The notes under the pieces were generated by a model. That model was not told the origin of the DNA and ran no database searches. It worked only from the letters and a program-made list of their open reading frames with translations. From an archaeon (GTDB taxonomy: Archaea; Nanobdellota; Nanobdellia; Pacearchaeales; JAPDKA01), in contig JAPDKA010000003.1 of NCBI GenBank assembly GCA_029258825.1, forward strand, positions 2,065 to 66,064: DNA of 64,000 nt. The letters run 5' to 3'. Made by a program: the position numbers and the translations under genes. This document shows positions 1,575 to 55,867 of the stretch, one piece after another (position 1 is the first letter of the stretch; every line of letters begins with the position of its first letter).

Positions 1575-2882
1575 ATGATAGAAAAAGTAGCCCCTATCAA
1601 TTTTTGGCATAAGGACCAAGATATAGGAATAAAAAGGAAAGAACTTAGCGAAGTGATGCCTTTACTAGATATAAGGGAAACTGTGTTTGTATTAACAGGA
1701 GTAAGAAGATGTGGAAAATCCTATTTGGTAAAGCAAATTCTTGCAGAAAAGATTAGCAATGGTTTAAGAAAAGAGCAAACACTTTATATTAATTTTGAAG
1801 ATGAAGACATAGAACCGTTTATCGCAAGGGGGATTATAAACAAAATATACTCTTCTTATAGGTCACAAATAAATCCTAAGGATTACTCAATTATTGTTCT
1901 GGATGAAGTACACAAAGTTCCGGAGTGGGAAAGATGGGTAAGAACAATGATAGATAGAAAAGAAAATGTAAAAATTATAGTTACAGGGTCTGGTTCAAGT
2001 CTTGGCGAAAAAACACCAAGCTTATTGACTGGTAGGAAAATATCATACAAGCTATTTCCCCTTTCCTTTCAAAGTTTCCTTATCTTTAAAGGAATAAAAA
2101 TTAAAAAATATGAAAAGTATCTGAGTTATTTAGAAGAATATCTCAAATATGGAGGATTTCCTTTAGCTGTATTAACTGAATTACCCATACAAAAATACAC
2201 CTGGCTTCAACAAACATACACAGACATTTTAACAAAGGATATTCTTATAAAATTTAAACTTAGAGAGGAACTAATACTTAAAAGAGTAGCCTATTTAACT
2301 CTTAATTCCTTTGCAAAATTTGTAAGCATAAGGAGGGTTGTCAACAGCATAAAAAGCATAATGAAGTTAAAAATTTCTCCTTCCACTGTAAGTTATTACT
2401 TTGATTATTTTACTTTATCAAACTTATTTTACTTTATACCTATTTTCTCATATAACATAAAAGATCAGGAGCAATACCCAAAAAAAGTCTATTGTGTGGA
2501 TACAGGAATAATAAATTCGGTATTAAAAAGCTTTTCAGAGAATTTAGGAAGGTTAATGGAAAATTTAGTAGCTATACAACTATTAAGAAAAAATTCTTTG
2601 AATGAAAACTTTTGGTTGGCATATTGGAAAGACACGCAAGGCAGGGAAGTAGATTTTATCATTAAACAAGGCACAAAAGTTAAACAACTTATACAAGTAA
2701 CTTATGCTTCAGGCAAAGACGAAATTGATAAACGTGAAATTAGAGCATTGTTAAAAGCAAGCGAATTGCTAAAATGCAGGAACTTGCTTGTTATTACTTG
2801 GGATTATGAAGCTATCGAGCAAATAAAAGGCAAGCAAGTTAAATTCATGCCGCTTTGGAAATGGTTATTGAAAAAATCCTAG
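1575..2882 (+). CDS. AAA+ ATPase, COG1373 family (AAA_14 + DUF4143 architecture)
   Basis: Walker A GVRRCGKSY, Walker B IIVLDEVH, and a C-terminal DUF4143-like region. Paralogous to 5996..7138, 7259..8526 and 54336..55580. Confidence 0.75.
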   Translation: MIEKVAPINFWHKDQDIGIKRKELSEVMPLLDIRETVFVLTGVRRCGKSYLVKQILAEKISNGLRKEQTLYINFEDEDIEPFIARGIINKIYSSYRSQINPKDYSIIVLDEVHKVPEWERWVRTMIDRKENVKIIVTGSGSSLGEKTPSLLTGRKISYKLFPLSFQSFLIFKGIKIKKYEKYLSYLEEYLKYGGFPLAVLTELPIQKYTWLQQTYTDILTKDILIKFKLREELILKRVAYLTLNSFAKFVSIRRVVNSIKSIMKLKISPSTVSYYFDYFTLSNLFYFIPIFSYNIKDQEQYPKKVYCVDTGIINSVLKSFSENLGRLMENLVAIQLLRKNSLNENFWLAYWKDTQGREVDFIIKQGTKVKQLIQVTYASGKDEIDKREIRALLKASELLKCRNLLVITWDYEAIEQIKGKQVKFMPLWKWLLKKS

Positions 2883-3231
2883 TTTGCCGTCGATAAAAGA
2901 ATGTAATAAAAAATATATAATTTTGTTACTAGATATAAGCATTTAGATAACAAAAAAATATGTTTTAAAAATATTAGGTTTTTTACAACACATGTGGGCA
3001 ATTAACCTATATAATAGCAGTATATAGGTTGGGCCTTATTAGAGTTGTTACATCAAAATCCAAGAAGGATAAATATACCATATAAAAGTGACACCACAAT
3101 ATTTATAAAGGGTAAGCCTAAAATGGCAAAAATAGGCTAACTAAAGCATAAATACAGCAAAAACAAACAGAAAGCTTTAAAAAGTGTCAATAAATAGTAT
3201 TGTTCATAACATAGGCGCCTAAAACAACTGA

Positions 3232-3409
3232 CACTGGCCAGTGCAGTGACGACTTCTATAGGGATTACAGTAAGCTTGAATAAGCAATTATGCTCAATAA
3301 GCAACTAGGCCTGCCCAGAAGGGCAAGCTGCAAAAAGCAGCATAGGCCTAGTTGCCGGCTACCAGTTCCAGCAAAATACAGCAGCGTGCTGGAACTGGGA
3401 AGCCAACTA
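3232..3409. other. GC-rich multi-hairpin structured element (candidate small ncRNA or structured 5' leader of the S-layer gene)
   Basis: A locally GC-rich island in an AT-rich intergenic region. It contains a palindrome cactgg/ccagtg (3232-3243). A 10-bp perfect stem caactaggcc (3303-3312) / ggcctagttg (3345-3354) encloses two 5-bp hairpins: tgccc-agaa-gggca and gctgc-aaaaa-gcagc. A 12-bp perfect stem ccagttccagca (3362-3373) / tgctggaactgg (3387-3398) follows. The core is flanked by a 7-bp direct repeat caactag (3303-3309 and 3403-3409). Confidence 0.4.
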
Positions 3410-3436
3410 GAAATAAAATAAAAAAACAAAAATAAA

Positions 3437-3443
3437 AAGGAGG
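3437..3443 (+). promoter_or_regulatory. Shine-Dalgarno-like aaggagg 8 nt upstream of the S-layer ATG
   Basis: The sequence aaaaaggaggtttcaaaATG places a strong GGAGG match immediately upstream of 3451. Confidence 0.6.
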
Positions 3444-3450
3444 TTTCAAA

Positions 3451-5874
3451 ATGAAACTGAACTTGAAAAAAGCATTTCCAGTTTTAGCTACTGGTTTAAT
3501 GTTAGGAGTAACTGCTTTTGGTGCTATGGCTTATGACTTAGGCAGCTGGCCTGCCCCATTCGTTGAAGGTGGCGTGGCCGATGTAACAGTAGTATATGGT
3601 GCAGATGCAATGGCAATTGACGCAGCTGCTGCAGCAGACATTGTTGGTGATTTGCAAGCTGCATTAGGCGGTGTGACAACAGAAACTGGAGAAACGGTAA
3701 CGGGGGAGGCTGTAAAAATAGAAGCAAGTAACAATAAGTTAAACCTTAATGAAACATTCGCTAGTATTGAGGGTGCTGGATTTGACGATGATGAATTGCC
3801 AACAGTATTAGCCGACGGGACATATAGAGCAGATGACGGAGAAGATTTCCCATACATCCAAAAGATAGAATTCGGCTCTAGCTATCCTTTAGCAACATTC
3901 AGAAAGGATACAGATTATACAGATCCAGACAAACCATACCTAATGATATATGGTGACGACTATACAGAATTCCTAAACTATACATTAGACTTTACTAAAG
4001 CTGCAGCAAGTACAAATACCAGTGGTACCTTAGACGACTTTGAAGATACACAAATAGAAATACTAGGTAACACTTACGATATAGTAAATGCAGAAGTCAG
4101 TGGAACCAAGATAACATTAGATTTAATGACCGGTCCTGTAAAAGCGACATTACAAGAGGATGAAGAAGCAACATTTACAGTTAATGGCGAAACCTACACA
4201 GTAAAACTAGTAATGATAGACAGTAATGGAAGAGCGAAATTTATAGTAAACGGTGAAGAAACAGACCCAATTAGTGAAGGTGGTACATACAAATTCAAGA
4301 ACTTTGATATGGAGATGGGTGTAACAGAAGTGTTAAGACAAGATTGGAGCGGTGGTAAAAGACAAGCAACATTCTATCTGGGCTCACAAAAATTAAGAAT
4401 TGAAGATAGTGATTACACTAGCTATGGATTAACAACAAATGTAGAATTAAATGACGAAGATGTAGAGGACTTGTACGCAAATGTATTTACTACATGGGAC
4501 GGAACAGACTTAAAGATAGATAAAATAGTGTTTACATGGTACCCTCAAAATGAGATATTTATAACAGAAGACGAACCTGCAGTATTCCCTGGACTAGGTT
4601 CATTTAAGATTACATTTGAAGGTTTGAAAAAAGCAAAAGAAGAAAAAATTGAAATTAAAGACGCTTCCAGTAGTGCACTAGAGTTAGTAGTGCCTCTAGA
4701 GACAGGTACAGTAACAATACCTTTCTTGTATGGTAATGGTACAACATGGACAGGAATTGGAAAAGATGCTACCCATAAATTAGTAACATCTGGTAGCTCG
4801 ACAGTAATCTATGAGTATGATGATAGTGATGGTTCTGCCGACCAATATTTAATAGTAACAGATACTACAAATTATGAATCGTACTTAGTCTCATTAAGAG
4901 TGTATACAGAGGATGGAACAAACTATACAAAGATAAAAGATGAAGCAACTGGTCAATGGGTCTGCGAAAACTTGAAAGCAGGAGATACTTGTGCTATCGG
5001 CAGCGCTGTAGTAACAATCAACAGTGTAAATGTAGCAGGAAAAACTGTAAACTTAACACTACCAGCAGCACCAAACAAGATATACACAGAAGAAGGACTA
5101 GTAATATACTTGCCATACGATAGTGCAACTGCTGGATGGCCTGCTATTAACTTAACAGCAAAACCAAGCACATATACTTTAAAGATGGTGGAAGAAAGCA
5201 TAGACACTGAAACCAGTGAAGGTGGAGCAGTATTAAACTTCACACTTGGATGGACAAGCGATGCTAAGGCAACTGTATCAGCTGTACCAGATAGCGAAGC
5301 AGATAACGTAATTGGTTATTCAGAAATTGATGATACAGATGACTACGCAGCTTACAGTAAGTTTGGTACATACATTCTTTATAAAACTGGTGGAAGTCAA
5401 GATACAGTAGAAATAACATATCCTGGAGAAGCCGCAGAAATGGTCGCTTATGTAGCAGAGGAAACAGCAAGTATTGTAGTAACAACAGAACCAACGACAA
5501 CAGGTGCAGAACTAGGCAGTGTAACATTCGCAGACACAGAATTAACAGATGAACTTAAAGCAAAGAACTTGATTGTGATTGGTGGTAGTGCTGTAAACAG
5601 AATAGCTGCTGAATTGCTAGACTTGCCATATCCAACATATGGTACAGATGAAGTATGGGTCAATGCAACAGGTGTTGACGGTCCAGGTAAAGCAATAGTG
5701 AAATTGATGGCAAACCCATACACAGAAGACAAATACGCATTGTTAATTGCTGGTTGGGAAGGCACAGACACACAAAGAGCAGCTAAAGCATTGATTGAAG
5801 GTATAGAAGGCCTAGCAGGTAAAGACACTGTATTGCTTGACACAAGCACTGAAAATACTGTAGTTATAGAATAA
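3451..5874 (+). CDS. Secreted surface protein, putative S-layer (glyco)protein
   Basis: N-terminal signal peptide (MKLNLKKAFPVLATGLMLGVTAFGAMA). 807 aa rich in T/G/D/S/A/V with many N-x-S/T sequons and no TM segment after the signal peptide. Strong RBS, a long structured upstream region and a T-rich terminator, consistent with a highly expressed cell-surface protein. The S-layer assignment itself is inferential. Confidence 0.55.
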   Translation: MKLNLKKAFPVLATGLMLGVTAFGAMAYDLGSWPAPFVEGGVADVTVVYGADAMAIDAAAAADIVGDLQAALGGVTTETGETVTGEAVKIEASNNKLNLNETFASIEGAGFDDDELPTVLADGTYRADDGEDFPYIQKIEFGSSYPLATFRKDTDYTDPDKPYLMIYGDDYTEFLNYTLDFTKAAASTNTSGTLDDFEDTQIEILGNTYDIVNAEVSGTKITLDLMTGPVKATLQEDEEATFTVNGETYTVKLVMIDSNGRAKFIVNGEETDPISEGGTYKFKNFDMEMGVTEVLRQDWSGGKRQATFYLGSQKLRIEDSDYTSYGLTTNVELNDEDVEDLYANVFTTWDGTDLKIDKIVFTWYPQNEIFITEDEPAVFPGLGSFKITFEGLKKAKEEKIEIKDASSSALELVVPLETGTVTIPFLYGNGTTWTGIGKDATHKLVTSGSSTVIYEYDDSDGSADQYLIVTDTTNYESYLVSLRVYTEDGTNYTKIKDEATGQWVCENLKAGDTCAIGSAVVTINSVNVAGKTVNLTLPAAPNKIYTEEGLVIYLPYDSATAGWPAINLTAKPSTYTLKMVEESIDTETSEGGAVLNFTLGWTSDAKATVSAVPDSEADNVIGYSEIDDTDDYAAYSKFGTYILYKTGGSQDTVEITYPGEAAEMVAYVAEETASIVVTTEPTTTGAELGSVTFADTELTDELKAKNLIVIGGSAVNRIAAELLDLPYPTYGTDEVWVNATGVDGPGKAIVKLMANPYTEDKYALLIAGWEGTDTQRAAKALIEGIEGLAGKDTVLLDTSTENTVVIE

Positions 5875-5995: not shown

Positions 5996-7138
5996 ATGGA
6001 AATATTAGAAAAAACGAACCCTCACTGGTTTGATGAAGAAGATGAAGATTTAATTAAATGGAAAAATAAAACTATCCATATAATCCCAAAATGGATTTAT
6101 GAACTTTCTCTCCAGCCTTTCAGTCTTAATTTTGTTCTTGGCCCTAGAAGGGTTGGCAAAACAACAGGTATAAAGTTGTTAATTCAAGAATTAATTAAAA
6201 GAAAAGTAAAAAGAAAGGAAATAGTTTATGTTAATTGCGACCTCATATCAGAACTCTCTTTCTTTCAACGTATATTAAATTATATCTCTGAAAATAATTT
6301 TAAATTTATTTTCATAGATGAAGCTACGAGCTTAAAAGAGTGGTGGAAGCCCCTTAAAGGATTTATAGACGCTGGCTTGTTCAAAGACAAGGTGATAGTA
6401 GTTACAGGATCGATTACGCTTAAAGTAAAAAAACATGCAGAATTTTTTCCTGGAAGAAAAGGCAAGGGAAAAACAATAGAGGTTTTACCGCTTTCTTTTT
6501 CACAATATGTTAAATTGTTTAATGCTAAAAAGCTTTCTGAAATAAGGAGATTATTTAAAAAATATTTAATAACAGGTGGTTTTCTTGGAGCTTTAGACAA
6601 TGAAAGTGCATTTATGAAAGAATTAATTGATGCAATTAAAAGTGAAATCTTAAAGGTTGGATTAAGAGAAAAACTTGTATTTCAAATTATGAGTTCCTTA
6701 CTAAGAAAAATACCTTCTGCTTTATCCTATCAAAGTATTGCAAGCGAAATTGGAATCGATTATAAGACAGTTGCCCACTATCTTGAAACGCTTGAGGAAA
6801 TGTACTTGCTGGGAATTGCTTATTGGAAAGAAAAACAGGTAAAATGGAGAAAAGAAAAGAAAATATTTTTTAGAGACGCTTTTTTATTTAATACTTTCAA
6901 ATTTTGGGTATCTACAAAGCCTTTAGAAAGTGCTTTATATGAGCATATAGTTCAAGAACATTTGTTCAGAAAATTTGGCGAAATCTATTATTATCGTAAC
7001 AAGTATGAGATTGACTGTATAGCAGGTAACATGAAAGTTGAAGTTAAAGCAGGCAAGCCTTATCGAAAGTATCCGCGTGGTGTTAAGGTTGTTGATGAGG
7101 ACAATATAGCTGAATTTTTGTTAGAGTTAGAAAAATAA
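5996..7138 (+). CDS. AAA+ ATPase, COG1373 family (AAA_14 + DUF4143)
   Basis: Walker A GPRRVGKTT, Walker B FIFIDEAT. Paralog of 1575..2882. Confidence 0.7.
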   Translation: MEILEKTNPHWFDEEDEDLIKWKNKTIHIIPKWIYELSLQPFSLNFVLGPRRVGKTTGIKLLIQELIKRKVKRKEIVYVNCDLISELSFFQRILNYISENNFKFIFIDEATSLKEWWKPLKGFIDAGLFKDKVIVVTGSITLKVKKHAEFFPGRKGKGKTIEVLPLSFSQYVKLFNAKKLSEIRRLFKKYLITGGFLGALDNESAFMKELIDAIKSEILKVGLREKLVFQIMSSLLRKIPSALSYQSIASEIGIDYKTVAHYLETLEEMYLLGIAYWKEKQVKWRKEKKIFFRDAFLFNTFKFWVSTKPLESALYEHIVQEHLFRKFGEIYYYRNKYEIDCIAGNMKVEVKAGKPYRKYPRGVKVVDEDNIAEFLLELEK

Positions 7139-7258: not shown

Positions 7259-8526
7259 ATGTTTGATGAAGCATTTGTGATAGAATATTTCGAAAAATTA
7301 TTCGAGAAATTAAAAAAAGAAAAAATAAGGCAAAGAGAACTAAAAATTTCTTTTATAAAAGGAAAAGCCACCGCAATTATTGGCCCTAGGAGGTCAGGAA
7401 AAACTTACTTTGTTCTTAAATTTTTAAAAGAGAATGAATTTATTTTGATTTAGAACATGCAGCATTTAAGGATTCAACTTATAAAGAATTTTTTGAAATC
7501 ATCTCCATTTATGAAGAAAGATTTAAGATTAAAGTAAAAAATGTCCTGCTTGATGAAATTCAAAAGATCGAAAGTTGGGAATCCCTAGTAAGGAGCTTAA
7601 TAGATAGTGGTTACCACGTAATTGTCACTGGTTCAAGTTCAAAATTAGTAAGTAAGGAGATTGCTACACAGCTTAGGGGAAGAAGCTTAAGCTATTTTCT
7701 TTTTCCTCTAAGTTTTAGAGAATATCTAGAATTTCAAAATTTTAAACTCAAAAAACCAATTTCTTTATCAGAAAAAGTCAAAATAATTAATTTTCTGAAA
7801 AAATACTTAGAGTGGGGGGCTTATCCAGAGGTATTGCTTGAATGGAGTAAGAAAGAGAAAATTTTGAGAGAATATTTCGAAACAATCTTGCAAAAAGATT
7901 TTATAGAGAGATTCGAAGTAGTTAATGTAGAAATAGCAAGACTAATTTTTGAATTTGTGTTTCAGAATTTTTCTAAAGAAATAAGCATTAATAAAATTGC
8001 AAATTTTGTTTCTTCCAAGCTTAGGAAGGATGTAAAAAATATTGTTTATAAATATGTTGAAAAACTCCTAGATAGTTTCTCAGTATTCTTCATAGAAAAG
8101 TTTGAAAGTATCTATAAGAGAAAAAGTTTTATGAAAAAGATTTATATTTGTGATATTGGTCTTTCAAACATAATCGGTTTTGAGAAAGATATAGGCAAGA
8201 GAATGGAAAACACAATATTCCTAGAGTTAGTAAGGAAAACTAATGAAAAACCACTTATGGAAATTTTCTACTGGAAAGATTACCAGCAAAGAGAAGTAGA
8301 TTTTGTTGTTAAACAAGGCACAAAAGTTAAACAACTTATACAAGTAACTTATGCTTCTGAAAAGGATGAAATTGATAAGCGTGAAATTAGAGCATTGTTA
8401 AAAGCATCAGAGCTGTTAAGGTGCAAAAACTTACTTGTTATTACTTGGGATTACGAGAGTGAAGAAATTGTTAATGGTAAGAAAATTAAGTTTATGCCTT
8501 TATGGAAATGGTTGTTGAAAATTTAA
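7259..8526 (+). pseudogene. COG1373 AAA+ ATPase paralog disrupted by a single-nucleotide frameshift in a T-homopolymer (about 7439-7446)
   Basis: Frame A (7259-7453) encodes the Walker A GPRRSGKTY and then hits TAG. Frame B is open from 7438 to 8526 with no start codon and continues YFDLEHAAFKD...LLDEIQK...VTGSSS... collinear with the paralogs. Adding one T to the run gaatttattttgat restores EFIFDLEH. The ORF track splits this into 7259..7453 and a Met-started 7834..8526. Confidence 0.7.
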
Positions 8527-17028: not shown

Positions 17029-17133
17029 TGGGCCCGGTCGGATTTGAACCGACGACCCCTGGTTTTCTTAGACCTGCCAAAATGGCAGTGGCCATATAAG
17101 ACCAGTGCTCTAACCAGGCTGAGCTACGGGCCC
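17029..17133 (-). tRNA. tRNA-Ile, anticodon UAU, with an approximately 30-nt intron at the canonical 37/38 position
   Basis: The reverse complement reads GGGCCCG-TA-GCTC-AGCCTGGTTA-GAGC-A-CTGGT-CTTATA[intron TGGCCACTGCCATTTTGGCAGGTCTAAGAA]A-ACCAG-GGGTC-GTCGG-TTCAAAT-CCGAC-CGGGCCC-A. It folds as a standard cloverleaf: 7-bp acceptor stem, D-arm, 5-bp anticodon stem, T-arm GTCGG/CCGAC, positions 34-36 = TAT, U33, A37. The intron contains a CTGCCA/TGGCAG helix consistent with a BHB motif. No encoded CCA. Confidence 0.8.
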
Positions 17134-54335: not shown

Positions 54336-55580
54336 TTACTTTAGTATGTATTTCCACAATGGAACGTATTCAATTTTATTTTCCTTTTTTTCAATATCCT
54401 CAGTTATTATTAAAATTTTCTTTGGTTTAAATTTTTTCTCAAAATAGGAGATATTTCTTATTTCGTTTTTTCCTATTTTCTTTCTGTACTTAACCTCTAT
54501 ACCAACAACATCTTTTCCGTTAACCACGAAGTCTACTTCCTTATTACCTTCTCTCCAATAGTATTTTGCTTGACTCTCAAACAAAACCAAATTTTCTGCA
54601 ATCTTTCCTTTTTCCTCAAAACCGTAAACAAGAGAAAAACAAGGGTGCGAAGGATAATACCTCTTCAATTTTCTTGACGAAGCCCTCCTAGAACCCTTAA
54701 AGTTCCTCAGACTCTTTATTAAAAATCCGTTCTCCAAATAAAAAAGATAATTACTTAAGGCCTGTCTAGTAATGGCCAACTCGTTTGCCACCTCATTTAA
54801 ATTAATCATTATTCCTGGCATATTAGCAATTATTTCGACAATCTTTCCAACTATTTCTGGTTCCCTAACATTAAAAAGCTGTGTAATATCCTTTAATACA
54901 ATCATATCTATTATACCCTCTTTCAAATATCTTTTTGCCAAAGTTTCATTTGCATTAATAATCTCTGGAAAAGGTCTAAGCAAATAGTTATTTAACTCTA
55001 TTTCTACCTCTCTTTTCCACAACCTGACATTTTCTCTGATTTTCTTAATATCTTTACCTTTTAACTCTAAAAATTCTTCAAACAATAAAGGAGTCAAATA
55101 AAAATAAAAGATTCTTCCAGCCAGGCTTTCCTTAGCTTTTAACATAACATTAAGAGAAGCAGATCCAGAAACGAAAAACTTCATATTAGGAAAAGCATCA
55201 TAATAAATCTTTAATTTATTCTGCCAATCTTTCAATTTTTGTATTTCATCGAGAAAAACAAAAATTTTCTCTTTTTGAAGGCTCTTAAGCAAGATTTCCT
55301 TTTCATAAAAGTCAAAAAGTTCTTCTAAACTTATAGAGGATTCATCAAAAGAAAAATAAAGAATATTTAAAGGATTAATTCCTCTCTTAATAAGATAATC
55401 AATTACTTGATACATCAAAGTTGTCTTTCCTGTTCTCCTAAGCCCTACTACGGCTATTATTTGTCTTACTTTCAAATATTTCAAAATTTCGCTAAAAAGA
55501 TTTCTCTTAAATTCTGGAACAAGTTCTTTCCTTACTTCCCCCTCCTTCCACCAAGGATTAAGCATCTCTATTACTTTCAT
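54336..55580 (-). CDS. AAA+ ATPase, COG1373 family (AAA_14 + DUF4143)
   Basis: Walker A GLRRTGKTT and Walker B FVFLDEIQ. Fourth paralog in the window. Confidence 0.7.
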   Translation of the reverse strand: MKVIEMLNPWWKEGEVRKELVPEFKRNLFSEILKYLKVRQIIAVVGLRRTGKTTLMYQVIDYLIKRGINPLNILYFSFDESSISLEELFDFYEKEILLKSLQKEKIFVFLDEIQKLKDWQNKLKIYYDAFPNMKFFVSGSASLNVMLKAKESLAGRIFYFYLTPLLFEEFLELKGKDIKKIRENVRLWKREVEIELNNYLLRPFPEIINANETLAKRYLKEGIIDMIVLKDITQLFNVREPEIVGKIVEIIANMPGIMINLNEVANELAITRQALSNYLFYLENGFLIKSLRNFKGSRRASSRKLKRYYPSHPCFSLVYGFEEKGKIAENLVLFESQAKYYWREGNKEVDFVVNGKDVVGIEVKYRKKIGKNEIRNISYFEKKFKPKKILIITEDIEKKENKIEYVPLWKYILK

Positions 55581-55584
55581 ATTA

Positions 55585-55642
55585 GTTAATTATAATTAAC
55601 TAATATTTAAATTTTTCGTTAACTATAATTAACTAATATTTA
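55585..55642. repeat. Two 25-bp direct repeats in the promoter of the ATPase gene (candidate tandem promoter/operator)
   Basis: gttaattataattaactaatattta (55585-55609) and gttaactataattaactaatattta (55618-55642) differ at 1 of 25 positions. Each carries a tttaaatatt TATA-like box when read on the minus strand; the proximal copy is about 25 bp from the ATG at 55580. Confidence 0.5.
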
Positions 55643-55867
55643 CAAACCTATAGATGTTTTTCTCTCTGAAACCTGCATCAAAGCTAAACTCAAGCAACTT
55701 TTTGAATAATATTTCATATCATAAGAAAAATCTGATGCTGCTCTTAATTTAAGTTGGATTCTCATAGTATAGTTTAGTAACACAATATTTTAAAATTTTA
55801 GTATTACAAAAACTTTAACTGCTAATCCTGCCTGAAACCCACGCCCAAAAAACAAATCTAAAAAACC

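Follow-up and report, generated by a model that had tools for sequence, protein, structure and literature searches.

The window, which is the whole 64,000-nt stretch of archaeal DNA analysed here, carries a gene for an S-layer protein, and a compact, GC-rich cluster of hairpins (the element) lies directly upstream of it (Table 1). S-layer proteins are typically among the most abundant proteins of a cell. Homologues of this one were found in metagenome-assembled genomes labelled Woesearchaeota, Nanoarchaeota or Aenigmatarchaeota. The sequence of the window is also present in two other public assemblies, in which the leader of the S-layer gene is identical. The interval that separates the S-layer gene from the AAA_14/DUF4143 gene upstream contains no called gene.

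Four AAA_14/DUF4143 ATPase paralogues are encoded in the 64 kb (1575–2882, 5996–7138 and 7834–8526 on the + strand, and 54336–55580 on the − strand), one of which is truncated; three are located on the two sides of the S-layer gene. Most relatives have other neighbours there: upstream, a divergent HVO_A0114-family gene (PF25212), and downstream, a gene of about 190 aa. This difference in neighbours makes the window’s locus look rearranged. Directly upstream of the ATG (55580) of the fourth AAA_14/DUF4143 gene is a tandem AT-rich palindrome, ATATTAGTTAATTATAGTTAAC / ATATTAGTTAATTATAATTAAC (55585–55645, − strand), which looks operator-like and explains another of the strong folds picked up by the sliding scan described below. 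The only tRNA in the window is a 105-nt, intron-containing tRNA (17029–17133, − strand; 61.7 bits with the Rfam tRNA model), which was missed by ARAGORN, as that program reported zero tRNAs in the whole window. From this intron and the lineage labels of the S-layer homologues, the host is placed among DPANN-type archaea.

Table 1. Features from the distal promoter-like box to the S-layer gene, in window positions.
Feature	Position	Strand	Sequence or composition	Observation
Distal promoter-like box	3088–3108	+	GTGACACC-N5-TTTATAAA	Conserved in related S-layer loci; putative function, from the archaeal TATA consensus
Proximal BRE/TATA box	3170–3183	+	GAAAGCTTTAAAAA = GAAAGC-TTTAAAAA	Conserved across the ten loci compared
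5′-proximal small hairpin	3228–3247	+	Around palindrome ACUGGCCAGU (3233–3242)	Palindrome occurs once in the 64-kb window
Conserved leader motif	3258–3271	+	AUAGGGAUUACAGU	Similar motifs at the same relative place in relatives
Three-way junction	3301–3355	+	P1 and two inner hairpins	All pairs Watson–Crick; sequence conserved in no relative
P1 stem	3301–3312 with 3344–3355	+	GCAACUAGGCCU with AGGCCUAGUUGC	12 bp, perfect
Inner hairpin 1	3313–3316/3321–3324	+	GCCC/GGGC	4 bp, within P1
Inner hairpin 2	3327–3331/3337–3341	+	GCUGC/GCAGC	5 bp, within P1
P2 hairpin	3357–3404	+	4 + 12 bp, 13-nt loop	Begins one nucleotide past the junction
Unstructured linker	3405–3438	+	34 nt, A-rich (79% A)	Composition and low pairing
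Shine-Dalgarno sequence	3439–3444	+	GGAGGU	6 nt before the ATG; conserved motif
S-layer protein gene	3451–5874	+	807 aa, signal peptide, PF05124	Starts 47 nt downstream of the element

The upstream region was compared with the S-layer loci of nine other lineages, whose proteins share about 32–51% identity with that of the window, giving ten loci with the window itself. A search with an alignment of five proteins returned six metagenome loci. The distal and proximal boxes were judged against the established archaeal BRE/TATA consensus, in which the TATA centre lies near −26. At ten loci, an octamer of the form TTTAWAWA is preceded by a purine-rich BRE and keeps its position relative to the gene, which points to a probable promoter. 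The promoter-like ctttaaaaag noticed near 3170 by the first-pass annotation is part of this conservation, since the box around it recurs at the S-layer homologues of all ten loci and is accompanied by a second, distal box. The proximal box follows the consensus GAAAGCTTT(T/A)(T/A)AAA. Its 14-mer is identical in L009, whose S-layer protein is 32% identical to that of the window, and it varies to GAAAGCTTTTTAAA in L012, L014, L015 and L018 and to TAAAGCTTTTTAAA in L017, with close forms in L003, L004 and L016. The distal box has the consensus (TA)GTGA(C/T)A(A/C)C(A)TAAGCTTTATAAA, also written (TA)GTGACACC(A)TAAGCTTTATAAA, and sits about 60–75 nt upstream of the proximal box in related S-layer loci. 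The tandem boxes are kept across DPANN lineages (L003, L004, L009 and L012–L018), even though the S-layer proteins are only about 32–51% identical to the window’s.

The geometry of the proximal box, with its TATA centred near −26, predicts a transcription start at about 3206–3208. A run of five or more T residues is an archaeal termination signal, and no such run occurs in the window’s leader between the predicted start and the ATG. The conserved boxes and the absence of an oligo-T run lead to the expectation that the element is transcribed within a leader of about 245 nt. Farther upstream, palindromes of the form CC(T/A)TATATA...TATATAGG / ACCATATATGGT recur ahead of the distal box in L012, L014, L015 and L018, in the interval from the divergent HVO_A0114-family gene to the S-layer promoters. 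One such palindrome, AACCTATATA-N7-TATATAGGTT, is present at 3004–3030 of the window and may be a binding site for a regulator.

The element had been described as three perfect helices of 10, 12 and 6 bp with two nested 5-bp hairpins in a three-way-junction-like fold. The hairpin cluster is present in the sequence and folds into such a junction, but the figures require partial correction: P1 has 12 bp, P2 has 12 + 4 bp, and the inner hairpins have 4 and 5 bp. The supposed 6-bp helix is the palindrome ACTGGCCAGT at 3233–3242, where the RNA hairpin reaches only about 4 + 3 bp (3228–3247). The three-way junction is tight, with AA and AU (4 nt) as its only unpaired nucleotides. In P2, a perfect 12-bp part (3362–3373 with 3387–3398) is joined to a 4-bp extension formed by GGCU (3357–3360) and AGCC (3401–3404). 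All 37 pairs of the element are Watson–Crick and none is G–U. A switch in which CUAGUUG (3348–3354) would pair with the downstream CAACUAG was considered and rejected, as its energy is negligible compared with that of the 12-bp P1.

The stability of this fold is exceptional. A 191-nt region containing the element has a minimum free energy of −76.9 kcal/mol, with z = −6.4 on the + strand relative to dinucleotide shuffles. When the whole 64-kb window was scanned on both strands in 110-nt segments, positions 3301–3410 ranked first (−64.3/−64.8 kcal/mol); the runner-up among independent loci was the intron-containing tRNA at about −50 kcal/mol. The GC content is 56% at the element, compared with about 27–30% in its flanks and 19–30% over the rest of the intergenic sequence. 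Two properties of the fold count against a role as an mRNA stabiliser. First, the − strand folds equally well (z = −6.8 for the same region, dinucleotide shuffles). Second, a structure made of Watson–Crick pairs only, with no G–U, gives no information on the strand, and its origin could be recent.

The perfection of the arms, with no G–U pair and no mismatch, together with a GC content foreign to the surroundings, is what would be expected of selfish or accidental DNA. The element could be a palindromic insertion resembling a MITE or REP sequence, or a recent local duplication–inversion, tolerated in the leader without a function of its own. Its absence from the nearest relatives fits this explanation, and so does the neighbourhood, which looks rearranged when compared with other genomes and has AAA_14/DUF4143 paralogues on either side. 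A further point in its favour is a 7-nt direct repeat, CAACTAG (3302–3308 and 3404–3410), combined with a weak, gapped similarity of 9–10 nt between the element ends, GCCTGCCCAG and GCTTCCCAG, detected by inspection. The repeat had been taken for a target-site duplication flanking the core. However, the first copy lies within the 5′ arm of P1 and the second overlaps the last pair of P2, so the core is not flanked, and 91% of shuffled versions of the A-rich leader contain an exact 7-mer repeat by chance.

There are no terminal inverted repeats at the element ends; the inverted repeats are two separate, independent hairpins rather than a single terminal-inverted-repeat hairpin, and one half of the element shows no complementarity to the other. 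Searches of the 64-kb window and of about 85 kb of related loci revealed no further copy, and scans of viral contigs with both stems gave no match. In a genome collection, the 20-mer AGGCCTAGTTGCCGGCTACC had a single match, which lies within a coding region of a MAG from Sulfolobales and was judged to be chance. Short blastn matches of the P2 arm in the S-layer coding regions of relatives were likewise assigned to chance or codon motifs (GCT GGA ACT GG), and none of these occurs in the window’s own S-layer coding sequence. In size, in GC content unlike the surroundings, and in having inverted repeats with a short direct repeat nearby, the element does resemble MITEs. It differs from them in lacking element-spanning terminal inverted repeats, a flanking direct repeat and any other copy among the sequences searched. 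Moreover, relatives carry different hairpin modules at the equivalent position, which argues for selection for structure there. A MITE-like insertion is thus not sustained, and an origin as functionless DNA of any of these kinds is considered very improbable.

GC-rich islands in AT-rich archaeal genomes are typical of stable RNAs, and the element matches the window’s tRNA in GC content and exceeds it in stability. It might therefore be a stable small noncoding RNA of about 105 nt, expressed from a weak promoter of its own or processed from the S-layer leader. Just upstream of the element lies a degenerate version of the promoter box, ACAGTAAGCTTGAATAAG (3267–3284). It is offset downstream by exactly 100 nt from 3167–3184, to which it is identical at 15 of 18 positions, and could be a degenerate third promoter copy or a chance likeness. 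However, this box has a G at the third TATA position, and a start from it would fall at about 3306, within an arm of P1, which would destroy the stem. Without a convincing promoter of its own or an oligo-T terminator downstream, the independent small-RNA gene put forward by the first-pass annotation becomes a weak candidate. Its sequence is also conserved in no relative.

Known RNA classes offer no support for a separate RNA either. The first-pass annotation had proposed an Rfam scan, and no family scores at the element: nothing was found there at the gathering score with the whole window, and the best hits at E ≤ 10 on 2880–3460 had E-values of 0.4–8, far below threshold. In the ten related loci, Rfam 15 at the gathering score returned tRNAs alone. 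A resemblance to SRP RNA helix 8 had also been suggested, but no SRP match appeared in the window at the gathering score or in 2880–3460 at E ≤ 10. An archaeal SRP RNA is expected to have about 300 nt with helix 5/8 motifs, and the element has only about 105 nt. A tRNA or split tRNA half was rejected because ARAGORN finds nothing and the Rfam tRNA model matches only 17029–17133. A C/D box sRNA (C box RUGAUGA, D box CUGA) was rejected on inspection, with no UGAUGA in 3225–3415 and one CUGA at 3227–3230. The lack of an Rfam family, of C/D or H/ACA boxes and of tRNA-like features leaves a stable small RNA quite improbable, whether independent or leader-derived.

Structured leaders are a recurrent feature of the S-layer genes compared. 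In the nine other DPANN loci, the predicted leaders have 124–317 nt, followed by an A/U-rich stretch and GAAAGGAGG. Each of the ten leaders, the window’s included, has a more stable predicted fold than its dinucleotide shuffles, with z-scores from −1.6 to −7.1 (window −6.9, L009 −7.1, L004 −6.2, L003 −6.0, L018 −4.0, L017 −3.9, others −1.6 to −2.7). By GC-corrected folding energy, a leader segment ranks 1–5 of about 300 per locus in seven of the nine other loci, and leader segments differ from non-leader segments with a Mann–Whitney p of 2.6e-13. The hairpin sequences vary by lineage, while their position is constant. Within the closest clade, none of the 81 consensus pairs has been lost between L003 and L004 despite many substitutions, of which four are compensatory on both sides and twelve are one-sided. 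Many of these pairs are G–U and would therefore work only on the sense strand. A closed multi-branch junction is common to L014 and L018, with a different hairpin-forming sequence in place of one of its hairpins. This junction is of the same design as the window’s three-way junction. Two findings from the comparison weigh against a stabilising role of the element. The leaders of L012, L015 and L016 are weakly structured (z about −2), and the closest relatives, at about 50% protein identity, lack the element’s sequence, so that covariation is not measurable for the element itself.

Some of the related leaders have additional features. L003 (2850–2960), L004 (about 2636–2746) and L006 (about 1314–1424) share a conserved 36-codon hydrophobic ORF, MDIKY(V/F)FWLN...VLNLAA, of which the window has no equivalent. 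Between L003 and L004 this ORF has no indels, and of the 17 codons that differ, seven do so synonymously. A long predicted hairpin with compensatory changes overlaps the ORF, which could encode a small membrane peptide, form part of an RNA structure, or do both. The window’s own 43-codon ORF (3290–3421, MLNKQLGLPRR...) is unrelated to it and was rejected as coding, as it has no Shine-Dalgarno sequence, spans the perfect hairpins and is not called by gene callers. The leaders of L003, L004 and L009 also hold runs of 5–8 T, unlike that of the window, and these could be partial terminators or attenuators in archaea.

Within the leader, recurrence of sequence is limited to the two 5′ motifs ACUGGCCAGU and AUAGGGAUUACAGU. 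The palindrome ACUGGCCAGU is found unchanged in the L003, L004 and L006 leaders, with variants ACTGGCCGGT in L015 and ACTAGCCAGA in L012. A hairpin at the predicted transcript start is also present in L015, L016 and L017, three loci with distinct hairpin sequences. Counterparts of AUAGGGAUUACAGU are ATAGGGATGACAGT (L015), ATAGGGATTAAAG (L017), ATAGGGTATTAGA (L016) and ATGGGTGACTACAGT (L012). At the 3′ end of the leader, the 25 nt before the Shine-Dalgarno sequence are 96% A/U with a pairing probability of 0.07, and comparable A/U-rich spacers precede this sequence in most other leaders. The motif (G)AAAGGAGG stands before the start codon in nine of ten loci, and L018 has GAAAGGGGG. The ribosome-binding site of the window is unpaired with the element.

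The conserved setting of the element and the 5′ motifs ACUGGCCAGU and AUAGGGAU, which are kept in several lineages and could be protein sites, suggest that the leader might be a cis-regulatory RNA. Such an RNA would bind a protein or sense a signal (S-layer autoregulation, a dedicated regulator or temperature) and tune synthesis rather than simply stabilise the transcript. The HVO_A0114-family gene that most relatives have in divergent orientation beside the S-layer gene is in keeping with this. However, the sequence of the hairpin module is itself not conserved, and a junction with only four unpaired nucleotides leaves little room for a ligand pocket. Nor does the leader have an expression platform, as the Shine-Dalgarno sequence lies 34 unpaired, A-rich nucleotides away from the element and no terminator or run of at least five T follows. 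No Rfam riboswitch or leader model matches. A cis-regulatory role is therefore judged unlikely.

A broader proposal along these lines is that DPANN S-layer genes carry an undescribed class of cis-acting leader RNA, which is regulated and couples envelope synthesis to growth or host contact instead of acting as a passive stabiliser. The class would consist of the conserved tandem promoter, the 5′ motifs (ACUGGCCAGU and AUAGGGAU...CCCUAU) and a fast-evolving, very stable multi-branch module, of which the window’s three-way junction and hairpin would be an extreme example. One candidate for the regulator or nuclease that would bind it is the HVO_A0114-family protein encoded divergently in most relatives. 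This proposal is distinctly unlikely to be correct. No description of structured S-layer leaders in DPANN archaea was found in the literature searched.

A stabilising 5′ leader accounts for the observations best, and on balance the element is taken to form the 3′ two-thirds of a 5′ untranslated leader of roughly 245 nt, where it would be a lineage-specific module that stabilises the S-layer mRNA or blocks nucleases. Of the readings considered by the first-pass annotation, a 5′ leader of the surface-protein gene is the one that gains from the comparison, through the proximal box conserved in ten loci, the additional distal box and the finding that structured leaders are common to these genes. 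The element lies between the predicted start and the Shine-Dalgarno sequence of the S-layer gene, on the sense strand, and structure beyond chance recurs in the homologous leaders. The fold, its exceptional stability, the conserved promoter boxes and the recurrence of structured leaders are seen in the sequences, whereas the start site is predicted from promoter geometry, and transcription, trimming and stabilisation are inferred. The first stable hairpin lies about 20 nt and the big hairpins about 95 nt from the predicted 5′ end, which counts against a stabiliser, as classical 5′-terminal stabilisers sit at the very 5′ end.

The stabilising leader may work as follows. Transcription would proceed from the strong BRE/TATA box (3170–3183) and begin at about 3206, and the distal box (3101–3108) may provide another start. 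The RNA polymerase would pass the hairpins, which are not followed by an oligo-T terminator, and continue into the coding sequence. The AU-rich 5′ part of the leader may then be trimmed. The three-way junction and P2 would form a physical block to 5′-to-3′ exonucleolytic or endonucleolytic decay, and the 34-nt A-rich spacer and the strong Shine-Dalgarno sequence would stay open for ribosome loading. The outcome would be a long-lived, heavily translated S-layer mRNA.

If a stabilising leader is indeed present, episymbiotic DPANN archaea with tiny genomes would make their bulk envelope protein by a bacterial solution, with tandem strong promoters and a long structured leader. The conserved pair of promoters, together with the leader, would also be a ready-made strong expression cassette and a marker for the S-layer gene in uncultivated lineages. 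The element is otherwise ordinary despite its striking stability, and its most likely role is conventional and opens no new mechanism.

Stable hairpins in the 5′ UTRs of E. coli ompA and Bacillus aprE/ermC impede the entry of nucleases and prolong the life of the mRNA, including that of an abundant envelope protein. The window’s leader is similar in having stable 5′ UTR hairpins on an envelope-protein mRNA, where they would have the same effect. It differs in that the ompA, aprE and ermC stabilisers act at the extreme 5′ end, whereas the strongest hairpins of the window lie about 95 nt from the predicted start and would require prior trimming.

Trimming of this kind has a precedent in archaea. 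In methanogens, long and structured 5′ UTRs are found on highly expressed genes, and their processing makes the mRNA more stable and activates it (PMC5499594). The mta transcripts are also stabilised by long leaders, according to work cited in PMC5378194. Like the predicted S-layer transcript of the window, these are archaeal mRNAs with leaders longer than 150 nt and complex structures, and their trimming up to a stem-loop gives mRNAs that are more stable and better translated. The methanogen examples differ in belonging to ribosomal-protein, chaperone and methyltransferase genes of Methanosarcinales, and in several of them the structure masks the ribosome-binding site, which is not the case in the window’s leader.

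The closest analogues are bacterial: the slpA leaders of Lactobacillus acidophilus and L. crispatus combine the same parts as the window, namely a highly expressed S-layer gene, tandem promoters, a long stable leader and a strong, accessible Shine-Dalgarno sequence. Bacterial S-layer transcripts often have two promoters, and Lactobacillus slpA mRNAs have half-lives of about 15 min, which are ascribed to the structure of their long 5′ UTR (PMC3666127). The two systems belong to different domains of life, with different promoter types and RNase sets, and there is no sequence or structural homology between the leaders. Stabilisation was measured for slpA and is predicted for the window, and the archaeal module, a three-way junction followed by a hairpin, is of unusual stability. 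Without sharing any sequence with them, the window’s leader would thus resemble the known slpA and methanogen leaders in the way it works.
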